A stretch of DNA of 64,000 nucleotides, taken from contig CAWDVW010000005.1 of assembly GCA_963805855.1 (NCBI GenBank), positions 896,001 to 960,000 of the forward strand. Direction: 5' to 3'. Shown piece after piece: positions 2,598 to 41,952 of this stretch. Within the stretch, counting starts at the first letter, position 1. Each line of letters opens with the position of its first letter. Made by a program: the position numbers and the translations under genes. A model generated the notes under the pieces. It searched no databases, was not told the DNA's origin, and worked only from the letters and a program-made list of their open reading frames with translations. This stretch comes from Candidatus Dadabacteria bacterium. Lineage in GTDB: Bacteria; Desulfobacterota_D; UBA1144; Nemesobacterales; CSP1-2.

Positions 2598-4277
2598 ATG
2601 AAAGAGGAAATAAGAGAAGCAGTCCACAAGGCTTTAGATAATCTAGGTTTAGATATCGAGCAGATGGATTGTAGGATAGAGATAGACATACCTAAGAAAA
2701 GGGAATTTGGTGACTTTTCGACCAATATCGCTCTGATATTAGCAAAAAATTTAGGGAAAAACCCACGCGAAGTCGCAGAGCTGATTATTCAAAATCTCCC
2801 TGAAGACCGGAAAAGCCTTTTCAAGAGGGTGGAAATTGCGGGTGCCGGTTTCATAAACTTCTTCATCAAAGAACTTGCAATTATAAGTAAATTGACTGAA
2901 ATCGAGAGGCTTGGAGGAGGCTATGGCCTTTCAACACTGGGCAATGGGGAAAGGGTGCTCGTAGAATTTGTTAGTGCAAATCCCACTGGATATCTTCACA
3001 TGGGTCATGCCAGGAACGCTTGCGTCGGAGATGCAATATCAAACCTCTTAAATGCCATCGGTTATAATGTTACGAGGGAATTTTTCATTAACGATGCCGG
3101 AAGGCAGATTGAGCTACTTGGCCACTCCGTTTATCGAAGATATGAGGAATTATTTGGTATCAAGATTGAGCGCTTAGAGGACGGATACCATGGAGATTAT
3201 ATTAAAGAAATAGCCCTAAGAATAAAAAACGAGAAGGGTGATGCTCTTCTGGCGGATAAATCAAACAGGGAAGATTCTATCGAGTTTTGTAAGGATTATG
3301 CAAAGAGCATACTACTGGAAGAAATAAGGGAAGACCTGGAACTAATTGGCACATCATTTGACACATGGTATAGCGAGAGGGACAAGCTGTATAGTCCGAC
3401 CCGTAACCAAGATAATGAAAATTTGATAGACATAATTCTAAAAAAACTCGATGAGAGAGGAGTGATAAGTCATAGGGATGGCGCTATTTGGTTCGAGGCA
3501 TGTAAATTTGGTGATTCCCAAGACTGGGTTCTCGTAAAGAAAGACGGAAGTTATACATATTTCATTTCTGATATCGCATATCATTATGACAAGATGAAGA
3601 GGGGATTCGTTAAATTGATTAACGTCTGGGGCGCTGATCACCATGGCCATGTGAATCGTATCAAGGCAGCGATGAGGGCTTTAGGGTTTGATGATTCTTA
3701 TCTTAGGGTAGTATTAATCCAGTTTGTTAGACTGTTGACCGCGGGTAAGGAGGCGTCGATGTCAAAACGTTCTGGTAGCTATGTTACCATGCGCGATGTG
3801 GTAAAAGAGGTAGGTCCCGATGTTACAAGGTTCTTTCTACTTATGAGAAGTTCAGACAGTCACCTTGATTTTGATCTTGATTTAGCGAAGAAACAATCCA
3901 GTGAAAATCCGGTTTATTACATTCAATATGCACATGCTCGAATTGGTAGCGTATTTGAAAATGCATTGGCGAGAAGCGTACGCCCTTCAAACGTTTTTTT
4001 GAAACTACTAGTTCATCCTGACGAGGTCGATATAGCAAATAAGCTACTCCAGTTTCCAGAAGTAATAATGGATAGTGCGTTGTCTCTTTCTCCACACAAA
4101 ATTGCTTTTTACCTGCAAAACATAGCCTCCGATTTTCATGTTTATTACAACAAGTGTAGAATAATTACAGATAGTCCGGAGTTAAGTAGTGCCAGATTGT
4201 TTTTTATCGACTGTATCAAGACGGTCCTGTCAAACGGTCTGAGAATGCTAGGAGTCAGCGCGCCTGAGAGAATGTAA
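2598..4277 (+). CDS. argS: Arginine--tRNA ligase
   Basis: VEFVSANPTGYLHMGH (HIGH-like), MSKRSG, NPVYYIQYAHAR, APERM C-terminus. Confidence 0.98.
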   Translation: MKEEIREAVHKALDNLGLDIEQMDCRIEIDIPKKREFGDFSTNIALILAKNLGKNPREVAELIIQNLPEDRKSLFKRVEIAGAGFINFFIKELAIISKLTEIERLGGGYGLSTLGNGERVLVEFVSANPTGYLHMGHARNACVGDAISNLLNAIGYNVTREFFINDAGRQIELLGHSVYRRYEELFGIKIERLEDGYHGDYIKEIALRIKNEKGDALLADKSNREDSIEFCKDYAKSILLEEIREDLELIGTSFDTWYSERDKLYSPTRNQDNENLIDIILKKLDERGVISHRDGAIWFEACKFGDSQDWVLVKKDGSYTYFISDIAYHYDKMKRGFVKLINVWGADHHGHVNRIKAAMRALGFDDSYLRVVLIQFVRLLTAGKEASMSKRSGSYVTMRDVVKEVGPDVTRFFLLMRSSDSHLDFDLDLAKKQSSENPVYYIQYAHARIGSVFENALARSVRPSNVFLKLLVHPDEVDIANKLLQFPEVIMDSALSLSPHKIAFYLQNIASDFHVYYNKCRIITDSPELSSARLFFIDCIKTVLSNGLRMLGVSAPERM

Positions 4278-4281
4278 TAAT

Positions 4282-5031
4282 ATGAGTAACTTGTCGAAAA
4301 ATCCCGGAAATAAACAGATCATCTTCTTTTTCTTTGGCTTTTTGATCTTTTTTGCCTTTTCCTTCAGTTTAGGTGTAATAGTGGGAAAACAGATAGGTAA
4401 GTCCAGTGATAGCGGTTTCGGTGATGTATCAAAAAATATTGATACAGAATCCGGTCTTGGGGGAATTATAAAAGAGGGTGGTCAAGAAACTTTCCTTTTT
4501 GAGGAAACAGAGACAATTAACGACAATGGAATTGGTACTGAGAACCGCAAGTCACCGAATGAAAAAGAATCTGGAGCCACTAGCAAAGTTGAGGATATAG
4601 AAACGGACCAGCCGACTACGCAGTCAAGCCCCTCTTCAGCAAACGAAATAGATGACAAGGCTGTTGTTGCGGAAGCCGTCGATAATAATCCAACATCGTC
4701 AGACACCCGAGATCAAATAGTGGGTCATACAGCAGAAATTGACAATAGACGTAAGGAATTAACATCGTTACCTCCGATTGATCCGGAAGGGAAATACACC
4801 GTCCAACTAGGTTCATTCCAGGAAGAGAAGACCGCACTGCAAATATTGAACTCCCTAAAATTTAAAAGGTATCCAGCGTTTGTTAAAAAGGTCGAAATAC
4901 CCGGATATGGTGTCAGTTACAGGGTAAGGATAGGCACCTTCGGTACGAGGGAAAAAGCTTATCTCTATGGTGAAAACCTCAAGAGGTTAGAACCCTATAT
5001 TAAATCGGTATATATAACCACGAACGATTAG
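4282..5031 (+). CDS. SPOR-domain membrane protein (FtsN/DedD-like)
   Basis: N-terminal TM helix, low-complexity linker, C-terminal YTVQLGSF...YRVRIG; follows argS. Confidence 0.85.
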   Translation: MSNLSKNPGNKQIIFFFFGFLIFFAFSFSLGVIVGKQIGKSSDSGFGDVSKNIDTESGLGGIIKEGGQETFLFEETETINDNGIGTENRKSPNEKESGATSKVEDIETDQPTTQSSPSSANEIDDKAVVAEAVDNNPTSSDTRDQIVGHTAEIDNRRKELTSLPPIDPEGKYTVQLGSFQEEKTALQILNSLKFKRYPAFVKKVEIPGYGVSYRVRIGTFGTREKAYLYGENLKRLEPYIKSVYITTND

Positions 5032-25464: not shown

Positions 25465-25609
25465 TTCAAAGGTTATGATTCACAGACACAGTTACTGGGG
25501 ATCCAGATTTTAAAGAAGTAATTGTACCCGACTAATGAATTCGGTAATTGCTATTATGCACACATGTCTATGTTTACTGACTGGATGAGTTTGAAGGGAG
25601 ATATTTAAA

Positions 25610-26014
25610 TTGGCAGACACACTAAATCTCAGGGTGATCACCCCTTCAAAGCTGGTAATAGATGAAGAGGTGGATGAGGTTGTTGCCCCTGGTGATTCAG
25701 GGGAGTTCGGAGTACTCCCAGGACACTGTCCTTTTATAACCACACTGATGCCAGGGGAGCTTACCTACAAAATTAATGGAGCGGGAAAATCTATGATCAT
25801 TGACAGTGGAATAGCAGAGGTATCAGACGATAGGGTCAATGTGTTAACAGATAATGTCTTAAAATCCGAAGAAATCGATCCCGAGGCGGCAAGAAGAGAA
25901 GCCGAATCCATTTTAGAGGAACTCAAAGACTTTGGTGGTGGCAATAAGGAATTCAAGGAGATAGAAAGAAGGCTGAAATTAGCAGAGGTGAAGGCAAACG
26001 TCAAGAGAGCCTAA
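25610..26014 (+). CDS. atpC: ATP synthase F1 subunit epsilon
   Basis: LRVITP, GEFGVLPGH. Confidence 0.95.
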   Translation: MADTLNLRVITPSKLVIDEEVDEVVAPGDSGEFGVLPGHCPFITTLMPGELTYKINGAGKSMIIDSGIAEVSDDRVNVLTDNVLKSEEIDPEAARREAESILEELKDFGGGNKEFKEIERRLKLAEVKANVKRA

Positions 26015-26124
26015 GAATCAACCCCCCTAACGCCCGAGGATATACGCCCTCTTTTAAGAAATGGGAGTTTTGAAAAAATAGTCTATCTGTTGAAATGCCG
26101 CTTCTAGCTATTTCTGATGCTGGG

Positions 26125-26913
26125 CTATCCCAAGGATCCCTTGTCGACCCACACACGGGTAACCTTAATCTGCCGTATTAGTGGTTTAATCATGGATACA
26201 AGGAAAAGTGTAAATTCTTTCTCAGCCCTTATTAAGTTGGCTCTTGGAGGAAAGTGCTCTTTCCTTAGGACTCGGGTTATCTCTCGCAATTTCTTCTCAG
26301 AATAATAGCCATTTTCTCTAAGAACTGATTGTATTTGTTTCTTTGTAGCCTTCTGAGCATCACAGTGTGTGGGAAAAGCCTCTAAGAACTGCAGAGACAC
26401 AATACAAGATATATCATTGAATAGATTGAGGGCCTGTGGAAAATATTGTCGCAGAGAATCTCTGAGCTGATTCGATAGTTTCGTCTTAAGTTCAACGAGT
26501 GATTCTCTATCCCTTAGAACGATTCCGAGCTCTTGGGTGAGTTGATCGTCTGCAGTGACTGCATTCAAAGTACTTATGTCTGTGCGCAAGACATTTGCTA
26601 TAACAAATGCGTCGAAACTATCGCTTTTTACACCTGAAGTCTTATACCTCTTTCTGAACTTATCCATAGAGTTGGAATTTATTAGATAGACCTTGTAGTC
26701 GTAGCTGATTAAAAAGTCTATAACCCTTTGATTAGAGGTCTCAATGGCGAAGATGATCTCGTGCTCTTTACACAGGTGACGAATAGTGGAAAGGGCATAC
26801 ATGAAGCCATCGAGATCATTGTTGATTACAAAATCTTTAATCGGATTACCTTTGTCATCTATGATGAACAAAGTTAATTGCTCCCAAGACCAGTCAATAC
26901 CACAGTAAAGCAT
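26125..26913 (-). pseudogene. IS110-family DEDD recombinase/transposase, C-terminally truncated
   Basis: YCGIDWS, AIET, KSDSFDAFVIA give the DEDD residues; AAGGAGG RBS; ends at 262 aa with no Ser-containing C-terminal Tnp domain. Confidence 0.88.
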
Positions 26914-26950
26914 ATCTATGCCTCCTTATTAATTAGATTTTAAATGACCT

Positions 26951-27090
26951 CGATGCTCTGTTATTCTTATATGGGTTCTCCAGGAACGTAACACTATGGA
27001 ACTTAGAGCATGATTAGCTTGGAGAGGGACATAACTACCCAAAGTGGTCAGGCCACAAGCCCACCAGGGTCCTCTCTCCAAGTTGGTCTT
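26951..27090 (-). ncRNA. Predicted IS110 bridge RNA with target-binding and donor-binding loops
   Basis: Two stem/internal-loop/hairpin units (stems 27082-27069 with 27030-27018, and 27011-27005 with 26959-26953); loop segments match the element's left junction; ends approximate. Confidence 0.75.
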
Positions 27091-27095
27091 TGGGA

Positions 27096-27104
27096 AGCAT
27101 AACA
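27096..27104 (-). promoter_or_regulatory. Extended -10 element (TGnTATGCT) just inside the IS110 left end
   Basis: Minus strand TG-T-TATGCT immediately upstream of the predicted bridge RNA. Confidence 0.5.
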
Positions 27105-27110
27105 TATAAG

Positions 27111-27131
27111 CCCACCAGTCTTGCTGGTGGG
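27111..27131 (+). repeat. REP-like hairpin CCCACCAG-N5-CTGGTGGG, the IS110 target
   Basis: Perfect 8-bp inverted repeat abutting the IS left junction. Confidence 0.75.
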
Positions 27132-27161
27132 TATAAAGGGTATTGAGTACTATCACATAGA

Positions 27162-27215
27162 TGTAGTGGAGAACTCCAGTCCTCCAAAAACGACGACCAA
27201 AAGGTCGCCGATGCA
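27162..27215. repeat. 54-bp GTAG-type REP doublet (REPIN-like), degenerate copy
   Basis: TGTAG + hairpin + spacer + hairpin + ATGCA; aligns with the reverse complement of 41899-41952. Confidence 0.75.
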
Positions 27216-27230
27216 TTTGGACTAGATTTA

Positions 27231-27255
27231 ATCGGGACTGGAAAGTCCCGACTAT
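27231..27255 (-). repeat. REP-like hairpin (ATAG-TCGGGACT...AGTCCCGA)
   Basis: Perfect TCGGGACT/AGTCCCGA stem; related copies at 40611-40634 and 41966-41988. Confidence 0.65.
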
Positions 27256-27507
27256 CCATGATAAATAATATTGTCATCAATTACGATAGGCGGGGTTTTC
27301 CAACCCGGTATCGACAAAACATTTGGAATTGGAAACCTGAATGTTTACACAGCAATTACGGTAAACCATCAGTCCCTGTCCTGGGCCGTTGCACAGGGCT
27401 TACGACAGGCTTAGGCGAAGGGTTGCTGGTGGGATGATCTATGGTCACGAGCAAGCCTGTCCTTGTATATTAATAAGTGGATCGTGACGACCTAACCAGT
27501 CAAAAAT

Positions 27508-28858
27508 TCACATGAGGTTATAATAGTCGAGCCCAAGGTGGGTAATTAACTCCTCGCCCTTGAGATAGCGGAGGGTATTTTTTAACTTCATGAGCTGTAT
27601 AAACAGGTCATGCTCGGGATAGAGGTTTTCCCCGACCATAGGACTCTTGAAATAAAAAGAGAGCCATTCCTGAATGCCGTATAAATACGCTCTTTGAGCA
27701 AGATCCATAAAGAGCACTAAATCAAGGACTATAGGGGCAGCGAGGATACTGTCACGACAAAGAAAATTGACCTTAATCTGCATTGGATACCCAAGCCATC
27801 CAAATATATCTATATTATCCCAAGCCTCTTTCTCGTCGCCTCTCGGCGGATAGTAATTGATTCTTACCTTATGGTAGTAGTCTGAATACAGATCAGGGTA
27901 TAATTCCGGTTGAAGAATGTACTCTAGTACACCCAGTTTGCTGACCTCTTTAGTCTTAAATGAGTAGGGATCATCGAGAACCTCACCGTCTCTATTTCCG
28001 AGTATATTGGTTGAAAACCAACCGTTAACGCCTATCATTCTACTCTTGAGCCCTGGTGCCAAGATCGTCTTCATTAGAGTTTGGCCTGTTTTGAAGTCCT
28101 TGCCAGCTATAGGAACCTTCTTTACTTTTGCAAGCTCAATCAGCGCCGGTATGTCCGCCGAAAGGTTTGGAGCCCCATTTGCATATGGCACGCCACTTTT
28201 TATTGCCGCGTATGCATAAATCATGCTAGGGGCTATATGCGGATGATTATCCTTTAACCCCATTTCAAAACTCCTGATAGATTGATGAACCGCAGAAGAC
28301 TCAATATATGTTTCGGTGCTACCACACCATACCATTACCATCCGATCGAGCTTATTCAGCTTACTAAAATTTGATATATCTTCTATGATTTGTTCGGCAA
28401 GATCCATTTTGGTCTTCCCCTTCTTTAAGTTCTTGCCGTTGAGTCTCTTAACAAACTTCTTATCGAACACTGCCGGCATAGGCTCAATATCCTCTAGAAC
28501 TGCTCGCAAGTCATCTAGAAGGCCCGACCTCAAGCACGCCCGCTTTAATTGCTGCTTCGTATATGTTGTCGTTGAATATGTCCCATCCACCGAATGCTAT
28601 ATTAGATATATCTGCTAAAGGGATGAATTCTTTGATGAGAGGAACCTTCCTTTCAGTCCTCTTACCGAGTCTTATCGTTCCTAATTGAGTGAGTGAACCT
28701 ATTGGCTTTCCAATTCCCCTTTTTATTGCTTCAATCCCGGCAATAAAGGTAGTACTTACAGCACCACCCATACCGGGGAGCAAAACCCCGAGTCTCCCAT
28801 TGGGAGAGCCAATGACCTTTTTCTTCTTAAGTCTGGTATTCCGGCTTTTGGTTGGCAA
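27508..28858 (-). CDS. ino1: myo-inositol-1-phosphate synthase, split by a one-base frameshift near 28520-28530
   Basis: N-terminal ORF has GVLLPGMGGAVSTT and FGGWDI; C-terminal ORF has VWCGSTE, NGAPN, GKDFKTGQT, STNILGNRDG, DEKEAWDNIDI, CRDSILAAP; removing one G gives AGVLE(S/V)GLLDDL. Confidence 0.88.
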
Positions 28859-39766: not shown

Positions 39767-39820
39767 TGTAGTGGAGGTCTTTCGACGTCCATAAATGGAA
39801 TCCTAAAGGATTCCGCTACA
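39767..39820. repeat. 54-bp GTAG-type REP doublet
   Basis: TGTAGTGGA...TCCGCTACA with two internal hairpins; same length and layout as the 27162 and 41899 copies. Confidence 0.75.
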
Positions 39821-41898: not shown

Positions 41899-41952
41899 TG
41901 TAGCGGCGACCTTTAGGTCGCCAAAAATGGAGGACTGAAGTCCTCCGCTACA
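41899..41952. repeat. 54-bp GTAG-type REP doublet, intact copy
   Basis: TGTAGCGG-CGACCT/AGGTCG-CC-AAAAAT-GGAGGACT/AGTCCTCC-GCTACA. Confidence 0.85.

Follow-up and report, generated by a model that had tools for sequence, protein, structure and literature searches.

The stretch of DNA examined here, referred to as the window (64,000 nucleotides (nt), G000:C5:896001-960000), comes from a Candidatus Dadabacteria bacterium whose genome, G000, is a 3.11-Mb assembly of 9 contigs with a completeness of 93.8%. Between positions 26163 and 27108, the window carries on its minus strand the remnant of an insertion sequence (IS) of the IS110 family, which lies against a short hairpin. As argued below, this remnant is very probably a 3'-truncated IS110-family element of the IS110 group that entered one arm of a GTAG-tagged repetitive extragenic palindromic (REP) sequence through site-specific recombination guided by a bridge RNA. 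The features at the locus, together with the second copy of the element in the same genome, are the following.

26125..26913, minus strand: truncated recombinase open reading frame (ORF) of 262 amino acids, with a PF01548 match of 110 bits and no PF02371
26157..26162, plus strand: right target half, GGGTAA (GGGTAG in the empty allele), directly against the truncated end of the element
26163..27108, minus strand: remnant of the IS110-family element, 946 nt, comprising the left end with the predicted bridge RNA and recombinase codons 1-250
26914..27108, minus strand: non-coding left end, 195 nt, predicted from folds and a five-element consensus structure to encode the bridge RNA
27109..27110, minus strand: left junction of the element, with the core dinucleotide CT (plus strand AG); the full copy and the relatives L050, L051 and L052 have CT at either end
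27111..27131, plus strand: REP hairpin of the 'B' type, with stem CCCACCAG (27111-27118), loop TCTTG (27119-27123) and stem CTGGTGGG (27124-27131)
L001:1595-3026 (G000:C7): full copy of the element, 1432 bp including one CT, with a 1430-nt body

Positions 27100-27140 of the plus strand read taacatata-AG-CCCACCAG-TCTTG-CTGGTGGG-tataaagg. The hairpin has a perfect 8-bp stem and a 5-nt loop. Directly before it are the AG at 27109-27110, which is complementary to the CT core, and the end of the IS110-family element; 195 non-coding bases separate the hairpin from the recombinase ORF. Read on the strand of the element, the left target is the 3' arm of this hairpin. The truncated ORF encodes the DEDD RuvC-like domain only: its residues 1-251 are 100% identical to the 409-residue protein of the full copy, and its tail is read-through into the flank. 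As the remnant is missing the 3' 484 nt of the 1430-nt body, it has neither a right end nor a serine domain, and the window copy therefore cannot move by itself.

When window positions 26000-27300 were compared with the genome by BLAST, one other copy was found, on contig C7. The two copies are identical and ungapped over 969 nt (window 27131 down to 26163), a span made up of the hairpin (21 nt), the CT and the 946-nt remnant, and their flanks diverge immediately outside the hairpin. The full copy is arranged as ...CCCACCAG-CAAGA-CTGGTGGG-CT-(1430 nt)-CT-ACCC, with the ends ...CTGGTGGG-CT-TATATG... and ...GTGTTA-CT-ACCCATTT; counted with one CT, the element therefore measures 1432 bp, and it is flanked on the right by the ACCC predicted from the guide. 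An earlier note on this DNA had proposed ACCC as the right target from the RNA guide and had suggested that other copies of the element might sit at the same CT. Both proposals are borne out by the C7 copy, the sole other one in the genome, which has the same left flank and is followed by CT-ACCC. CT is present at both junctions in four full elements (the C7 copy, L050, L051 and L052). The C7 copy is situated between two paralogous genes (L001:291-1418 and 3144-4508), which encode secreted-looking proteins with long Pro-Thr linkers and CxxCH motifs.

The C7 recombinase (409 amino acids) matches PF01548 with 108.6 bits over profile positions 1-155 of 155 and PF02371 with 62.6 bits, and it scores 171.8 bits against NF033542, 'IS110 family RNA-guided transposase', for which the cut-off is 140. 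Its sequence weakly resembles those of the solved ISCro4 and IS621 recombinases, and its C-terminal domain with the conserved serine (PF02371) aligns to the corresponding ISCro4/IS621 domain, including the S-G motif. Close relatives of this protein were sought among genomes: a search of species genomes gave a single match, at 26% identity, and at E <=1e-20, 21 of 120 genomes of the phylum (G000 included) had matches, all at <=28% identity except for the two copies of G000 itself, with no match in the two genomes of the same genus. The nearest public relatives carry the label of Thermodesulfobacteriota metagenome-assembled genomes.

In the consensus structure derived from five elements, the left end folds into two stems, each enclosing an internal loop. 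The target guide pair lies on the two sides of the internal loop closed by a 14-bp stem, and the donor pair lies in the second stem-loop; each pair thus occupies the 5' and 3' sides of an internal loop with conserved closing stems, in the expected order. The predicted parts of the bridge RNA are given below with their positions in the left end (LE) and the number of shuffled sequences that gave an equal match.

~27017-27083, minus strand: stem-loop 1, target-binding, from fold prediction
~26953-27011, minus strand: stem-loop 2, donor-binding, from fold prediction
27058..27067, minus strand: left target guide CUGGUGGGCU (LE 42-51), which copies CTGGTGGG-CT over 10 nt (1 of 2000 shuffles)
27035..27041, minus strand: right target guide UGGGUAG (LE 68-74), complementary to CT-ACCCA over 7 nt (154 of 2000 shuffles)
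26988..26998, minus strand: left donor guide CAUAGUGUUAC (LE 111-121), identical to the terminal 11 nt of the right end in the full copy (0 of 2000 shuffles)
26966..26973, minus strand: right donor guide CAUAUAAG (LE 136-143), antisense over 8 nt to CT-TATATG, the left end of the element (45 of 2000 shuffles)

Because the left target guide has the same sequence as the top strand of the left target and the core, it would pair with the bottom strand. The right target guide UGGGUAG is unchanged in all six aligned left ends, and the left donor guide covaries with the right end in the relatives described below.

Upstream of the bridge RNA, the integrated left end lacks any sigma-70-like site, and the region as a whole has 3, versus a shuffle mean of 3.1. 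Joining of the two ends would bring together a TTGACA of the right end, which is followed by N8-CT, and a TATGCT of the left end, located 7 nt past the core (L001:3007-3026 and 1595-1607), yielding a promoter-like TTGACA-17-TATGCT that agrees with the consensus at 10 of 12 positions versus 6 of 12 in the integrated form. The pair keeps its position in L050, L051 and L052, and in the clade of relatives with about 70% identity, it reads TTGGCA-17-TACGCT. The right-end half (TTGACA) is absent from the remnant in the window. Junction promoters are known in the IS110 family, and as a consensus match, TTGACA-17-TATGCT would fit such a promoter.

If the hairpin is the target, uninterrupted copies of the reconstructed site should exist, and the earlier note had proposed looking for them. 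The full sequence GGGTAG-CCCACCAG-TCTTG-CTGGTGGG is present at G000:C2:690494-690520 and C6:87976-88002, and a GGGTAG hairpin with the loop GCTTG is present at G000:C2:622618-622644. The GTAG-hairpin layout, which is split by the element at the window locus, is therefore whole in intact copies, in agreement with the earlier claim that the reconstructed target has GTAG directly 5' of a perfect hairpin. Hairpins with the exact 8-bp stems occur at seven loci in G000, of which two adjoin the IS, three are followed by CT-ACCC and two by near variants. The 14-mer CTGGTGGGCTACCC, which joins CTGGTGGG to CT-ACCC, occurs exactly five times in G000, with 24 more occurrences carrying one or two changes; by our own arithmetic, about 0.02 exact occurrences would be expected by chance in 2 x 3.1 Mb. 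In the 120 phylum genomes, GTAGCCCACCAG-N4-5-CTGGTGGG was found in six, all of the window's own family (3, 6, 11, 9, 2 and 1 copies), and the reversed control pattern was found in none. Uninterrupted GTAGCCCACCAG sites thus exist in G000 and in five related genomes; four of these five are without any DNA of the IS, and the fifth, G006, has the initial 122 nt of the IS at a contig end.

G006 belongs to the same genus and contains the orthologous locus. Its contig C114 runs from atpC through ...cacacaaGGGTAG-CCCACCAG-TCTTG-CTGGTGGG-tataaac..., with 98 nt beyond the AG, and by its sequence this is the empty site at the orthologous place. G006 contig C7 has these 98 nt too, continuing in the direction of the inositol-phosphate synthase gene, and here the AG is joined to the IS left end. 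The G006 assembly therefore holds both forms, and the fork (L043, the end of C7; L041, the start of C114) suggests that the insertion is polymorphic in that population. In G006, the left end of the IS differs from ours at 2 of 122 nt, both outside the listed guide matches and one of them directly 5' of the right target guide. In another related genome, G005, the corresponding spacer is 212 nt long and carries neither the hairpin nor the IS.

Empty alleles were also seen in two (X1 and X2) of three DNA sequencing runs (X1, X2 and X3) from public salt-marsh metagenomes, which need not include the source sample and the best of which holds 0.80 of the sampled words. One contig in each of X1 and X2 joins window position 26160 to 27109, giving GGGT|AG-CCCACCAG, with 138 and 261 identical flanking letters. 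The short sides of these joints (26 and 23 letters) are below the 31-letter threshold for a bridge; the joints are therefore support and not proof. Together with the orthologous locus of G006, they show that the right half-site is still present in the window, as GGGTA at 26157-26161. The statement of the earlier note that the GTAG was known from the guide only must accordingly be corrected, since most of it is physically present beside the truncated end of the element.

A scan of metagenome contigs yielded five relatives of the element, and these reveal how the guides and targets have changed together. L050 (95% protein identity) is inserted in a variant B arm, CTGGTGGA-CT ... CT-ACCT, and its guide differs from its own flank at 2 of 10 positions, both of them compatible with G:T or U:G pairing. 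L051, L052 and L054 (70-72% protein identity) are inserted after CTCGTGAC-CT, the other (A) arm of the repeat, and are followed by CT-ACCCAT; at the homologous column of the loop, their guide reads ATCGTGGCCT. The A and B arms differ at three positions, two of which are matched by changes in the guide, and the third leaves G opposite T. The donor side covaries as well: the right end GTGAAA goes with the guide GUGAAC in the 70% clade, versus GTGTTA with GUGUUAC in the window element. The stems of the bridge RNA are invariant among the relatives, and the guide columns vary. In all seven insertions seen (the window, G000:C7, G006:C7, L050, L051, L052 and L054), the element points the same way, with its left end next to the hairpin arm. 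As L052 lies in a long-loop variant of the repeat, with the arms 29 nt apart, a tight hairpin beside the core is not strictly needed.

The repeat itself was defined by a profile built from five doublets, which gave 42 matches at E <=1 and 25 separate loci at E <=1e-3. Open frames of >=150 codons, which make up 79% of the genome, contain none of the 25 loci. A full unit is an inverted doublet, in which arm A (GGGTAG-GTCACGAG-TCTTG-CTCGTGAC) is followed after about 10 nt by arm B in inverted orientation; the GTAG tags are on the outside, and the tag and loop are common to both arms while the stems differ. The doublet model is matched over all of its 64 positions by at least 8 loci, and in some members (the long-loop variants) the loop is longer by about 27 nt. 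In G000, GTAG is the commonest tetranucleotide 5' of perfect 8-bp hairpins (65 of 606; the next is ATAG with 47), and the genome therefore contains several such families, some of them within the window, as the earlier note had observed for this layout. In two of five related genomes examined, a gene of about 151 codons (G003:C46 and G005:C88) has repeats with A and B arms on either side, at distances of no more than 100 nt. The products score 126.6 and 117.6 bits on NF047646, 'REP-associated tyrosine transposase' (RAYT; cut-off 80), and are 76% identical to each other. With its tag, extragenic location, inverted doublets and RAYT flanking in sister genomes, the repeat is, by the signs of its sequence, a GTAG-type REP, as the earlier note had proposed.

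Other repeats share the neighborhood. The spacer at 27109-27507 is a stack of four kinds of hairpin repeats. A decayed long-loop member of the A/B REP family at 27340-27460 adjoins the stop codon of the inositol-phosphate synthase gene. A second GTAG-tagged family, of the type GTAG-(C/T)GGAG(A/G)(A/T)C-TTTA and mostly in inverted doublets, is found at 27163-27210, 39768-39819 and 41900-41951, and members of it flank two RAYT-like genes (G000:C2:679691 and C2:684678). An ATAG-tagged inverted doublet of about 70 nt (ATAG-TCGGGAC... and ATAG-GCGGGGTT...) occupies 27232-27310; it is present in about 30 copies in G000, with 45-51 matches in each genome of the same genus. The RAYT-like genes of G000 comprise 10 PF01797 places and 17 NF047646 matches, of which 4 exceed the cut-off. 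The best of them (G000:C2:386492-386899, 118 bits on NF047646) has an in-frame TAG, and several other RAYT-like places contain stops.

Several observations weigh against insertion by a bridge RNA into a REP. The 7-nt match of the right target guide is weak when taken alone, as 154 of 2000 shuffles reached it. The guides of L050 and of the 70% clade match the observed left targets at just 8 of 10 positions, a match that appears only when the homologous loop column is read; with exact-substring matching, the left targets of L050 (6 nt) and of L051, L052 and L054 (5 nt) did not rise above shuffles. A scan of 25500-28000 against Rfam 15 at E <=1 matched no family, and Rfam may hold no bridge RNA model. 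The contigs of the one RNA run, X19, lie inside the recombinase gene only (26266-26410 and 26500-26650), none covers 26914-27108, and these data are uninformative on expression of the bridge RNA. On the side of the repeat, the family is small, with 25 loci, while classical REPs often have more than 100 copies (PMC2817692). None of the RAYT-like places in G000, the 10 of PF01797 included, is flanked by this REP family; its sole member near a RAYT gene of G000 is at C2:679277, with REPs of another family in between. The cognate RAYT of G003 and G005 has no ortholog in G000, where the best tblastn match is 35% identical. The cognate gene is therefore either missing from the 93.8%-complete assembly or lost, and the REP/RAYT system appears to have lost its RAYT in G000.

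The truncated end of the window copy is also at odds with a simple insertion, as the junction on the element strand is ...ATTAAGG-TT-ACCC rather than CT-ACCC (plus strand 26157-26166, GGGTAA-CCTT). The full copy has ...ATTAAGG-CT-TACG... at the matching internal place and ...GTGTTA-CT-ACCC at its end. Recombination or deletion between the internal and terminal CT would yield CT and not the observed TT, and truncation via the short repeats TAC or TTAC would need one further change to give the observed letters; neither route by itself accounts for the truncation with its C-to-T difference. No contig among those listed from X1-X3 bridges the truncated junction at 26160-26163, but this does not show that the junction is absent. 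The sequence past ACCC at the truncated end showed no similarity exceeding that of shuffles when compared with the extended right flanks of three intact G000 sites (1189, 871 and 1043 of 2000 shuffles reached the score), and its likeness to the G006 flank was judged by eye only.

One might ask whether the hairpin is part of the element, a structured terminus that moves along with it, and not a target in the host. The 21-nt hairpin is indeed identical beside both G000 copies, and the identity of the two copies runs through it. However, the hairpin with CT-ACCC stands free of the IS at five exact sites in G000 and in five related genomes, four of which have no trace of IS DNA while G006 has just 122 nt of the left end; the flanks diverge directly outside the hairpin, the locus is empty in G006 and in metagenome contigs, and relatives of the IS adjoin a different hairpin arm, all of which makes such a terminus hardly credible. 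Duplication of a segment that already contained element and flank, in which case the shared flank would say nothing about target choice, is suggested by the fact that G000 has just two copies that are 100% identical over 946 nt. Here, though, the shared flank is exactly the 21-nt REP and nothing beyond, five further insertions (one in another genome and four on metagenome contigs) use the same CT and orientation, and the guides match the flanks, and we give this possibility almost no weight.

Insertion directed by the guides therefore remains the reading that we prefer, and two further doubts concern what was entered and what is now present in the window. The repeat might be some other GTAG-bearing hairpin, such as a gene-less derivative of IS200/IS605 (a palindrome-associated transposable element, PATE) or a terminator motif, and not a RAYT-dependent REP. 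The failure to find a cognate RAYT in G000, the low copy number and the terminator-like score of the hairpin followed by T-rich IS sequence all point that way, but the orthologous genes of G003 and G005 are well above the NCBIfam cut-off for RAYTs and are flanked on both sides, within <=100 nt, by this REP family, which is the classical arrangement, and doublets with GTAG on the outside match the described REP dimers (PMC3733652); a different kind of repeat is thus very unlikely. Somewhat less improbable, yet still unlikely, is that the truncation of the window copy is an assembly artefact and that the real locus is either empty or occupied by a full element. In favor of this are the lack of a contig bridging 26160-26163 among the contigs listed from the three DNA runs, the continuation into full-length IS of the contigs that reach 26163, and the empty allele seen in two runs. 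Nevertheless, contigs cannot show absence, the runs need not be from the source sample, and the junction is far inside a 1.09-Mb contig of a 9-contig assembly.

REP targeting by IS110 elements is long established, and the present element is therefore a further case of known behavior. IS621, ISPa11, ISPpu9, ISPpu10 and ISRm19 are on record as REP-targeting (PMC1525189, which gives ISPa11, ISPpu9 and ISPpu10 as REP-specific). For IS621, 144 of 173 insertion sites in E. coli are in REP elements, as the earlier note had rightly stated in general terms, and the natural target is ATCAGGCCTAC; its guides pair over 8-9 nt with the bottom strand and over 4-7 nt with the top strand (PMC11208160). Like IS621, the element described here encodes a recombinase with PF01548 and PF02371 and carries the predicted bridge RNA in its left end, upstream of the recombinase gene; the RNA has two internal loops, the 5' sides of which copy the top strand while the 3' sides are complementary to it. 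The core CT and the REP target are shared too, the core being the CT of ...CTAC at the foot of the hairpin, and the REP queries used for IS621 end in GGCCTAC (PMC11208160). Unlike in IS621, the recombinase has 409 residues versus 328 and is so distant that its C-terminal half alone aligns (phmmer E 3e-07), the REP family, guides and host lineage differ, and the guide matches are longer (10 and 7 nt).

All copies of ISPpu10 occupy one REP position, where the target consensus ends in ...CCCGCTCCTAC; the target stem-loop is 5' of the core, and the left target is its 3' arm (preprint 10.64898/2026.03.19.712850). ISPpu9 inserts at AG with a conserved inverted repeat downstream, mostly in bacterial interspersed mosaic elements (BIMEs; PMC12288879). 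Our element resembles these two elements of Pseudomonas putida in targeting a REP at one position with a stem-loop at the core. It differs from them in that its stem is 8 bp long versus about 5 bp, in that the relative L052 lies in a long-loop variant, and in that it is known from sequence alone. The repeat in turn resembles the GTAG-tagged REPs that are associated with RAYTs (TnpA-REP) in having GTAG directly 5' of a short, G+C-rich, extragenic hairpin, and it resembles BIMEs and REPINs (REP doublets forming hairpins) in its inverted doublets with the tags outside, partner stems that differ, and a RAYT gene that is flanked by them in sister genomes (PMC2817692, PMC3733652, PMC3479197). It is unlike these systems in having about 25 loci and no cognate RAYT found in G000, and the host lies outside the Proteobacteria, from which most GTAG families have been described (PMC3733652). 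In E. coli, TnpA-REP cleaves at CT, which is specified by A3 and G4 of GTAG (PMC3479197). In the targets of IS621 (ATCAGGC-CT-AC), ISPpu10 (...GCTC-CT-AC) and the element described here (...GGG-CT-ACCC), the core coincides with the CT of CTAC. In a limited literature search, we did not find it stated in print that the CT core is the complement of the AG that guides RAYTs, and PMC13604230, when searched for the terms, draws no such link.

The anatomy of the element, the guide matches, the empty and filled sites and the covariation in the relatives can all be read directly from the sequences, and the bridge-RNA interpretation of the earlier note holds up as a whole. By analogy with known systems, we infer that: the 195-nt left end is transcribed into an RNA with two internal loops, which binds the recombinase; the 3' side of the target loop (UGGGUAG) pairs with the top-strand CT-ACCC; the donor loop likewise recognizes the joined ends of the element itself, in a circular intermediate; and recombination at CT, which is complementary to the AG of GTAG, sets the element down so that the hairpin is on one side of it and the remainder of the tag on the other. 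With the element in place, the hairpin is preceded by TAAG and no longer by GTAG, and the REP copy that was entered would therefore probably no longer be a RAYT substrate.

A broader view is possible, and we offer it tentatively. A small clade of bridge-RNA elements may have diverged into lineages, each adapted to a different arm (A or B) of a single heterodimeric REP doublet and each cutting at the CT complementary to A3-G4 of the RAYT tag. IS621, ISPpu10 and our element are only distantly related to each other and yet use this one CT, which hints at a general rule: REP-targeting IS110 elements might home on a feature that is invariant because of RAYTs. The resulting TAAG might disarm the REP entered; in that case, one parasite would be exploiting another, perhaps at the expense of the REP/RAYT system.

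The known mechanism is unchanged by these findings, and the element joins IS621, ISPpu9 and ISPpu10 among the REP-targeting IS110 elements with bridge RNAs. Its target could be read from the guide loops alone and was then confirmed to the base by a second copy, by empty sites, by an orthologous locus at which the GGGTAG hairpin is intact on one contig and the IS left end is at the same AG on another, and by population contigs. REP targeting by bridge-RNA elements is thereby extended beyond the Proteobacteria, to an uncultured sediment lineage, and the relatives provide a natural case of retargeting, in which elements switched from one arm of a REP doublet to the other and acquired compensatory guide changes. 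If the coincidence of the CT core with the complement of the AG in the RAYT tag proves to be general, it would bear on how two kinds of selfish DNA interact.

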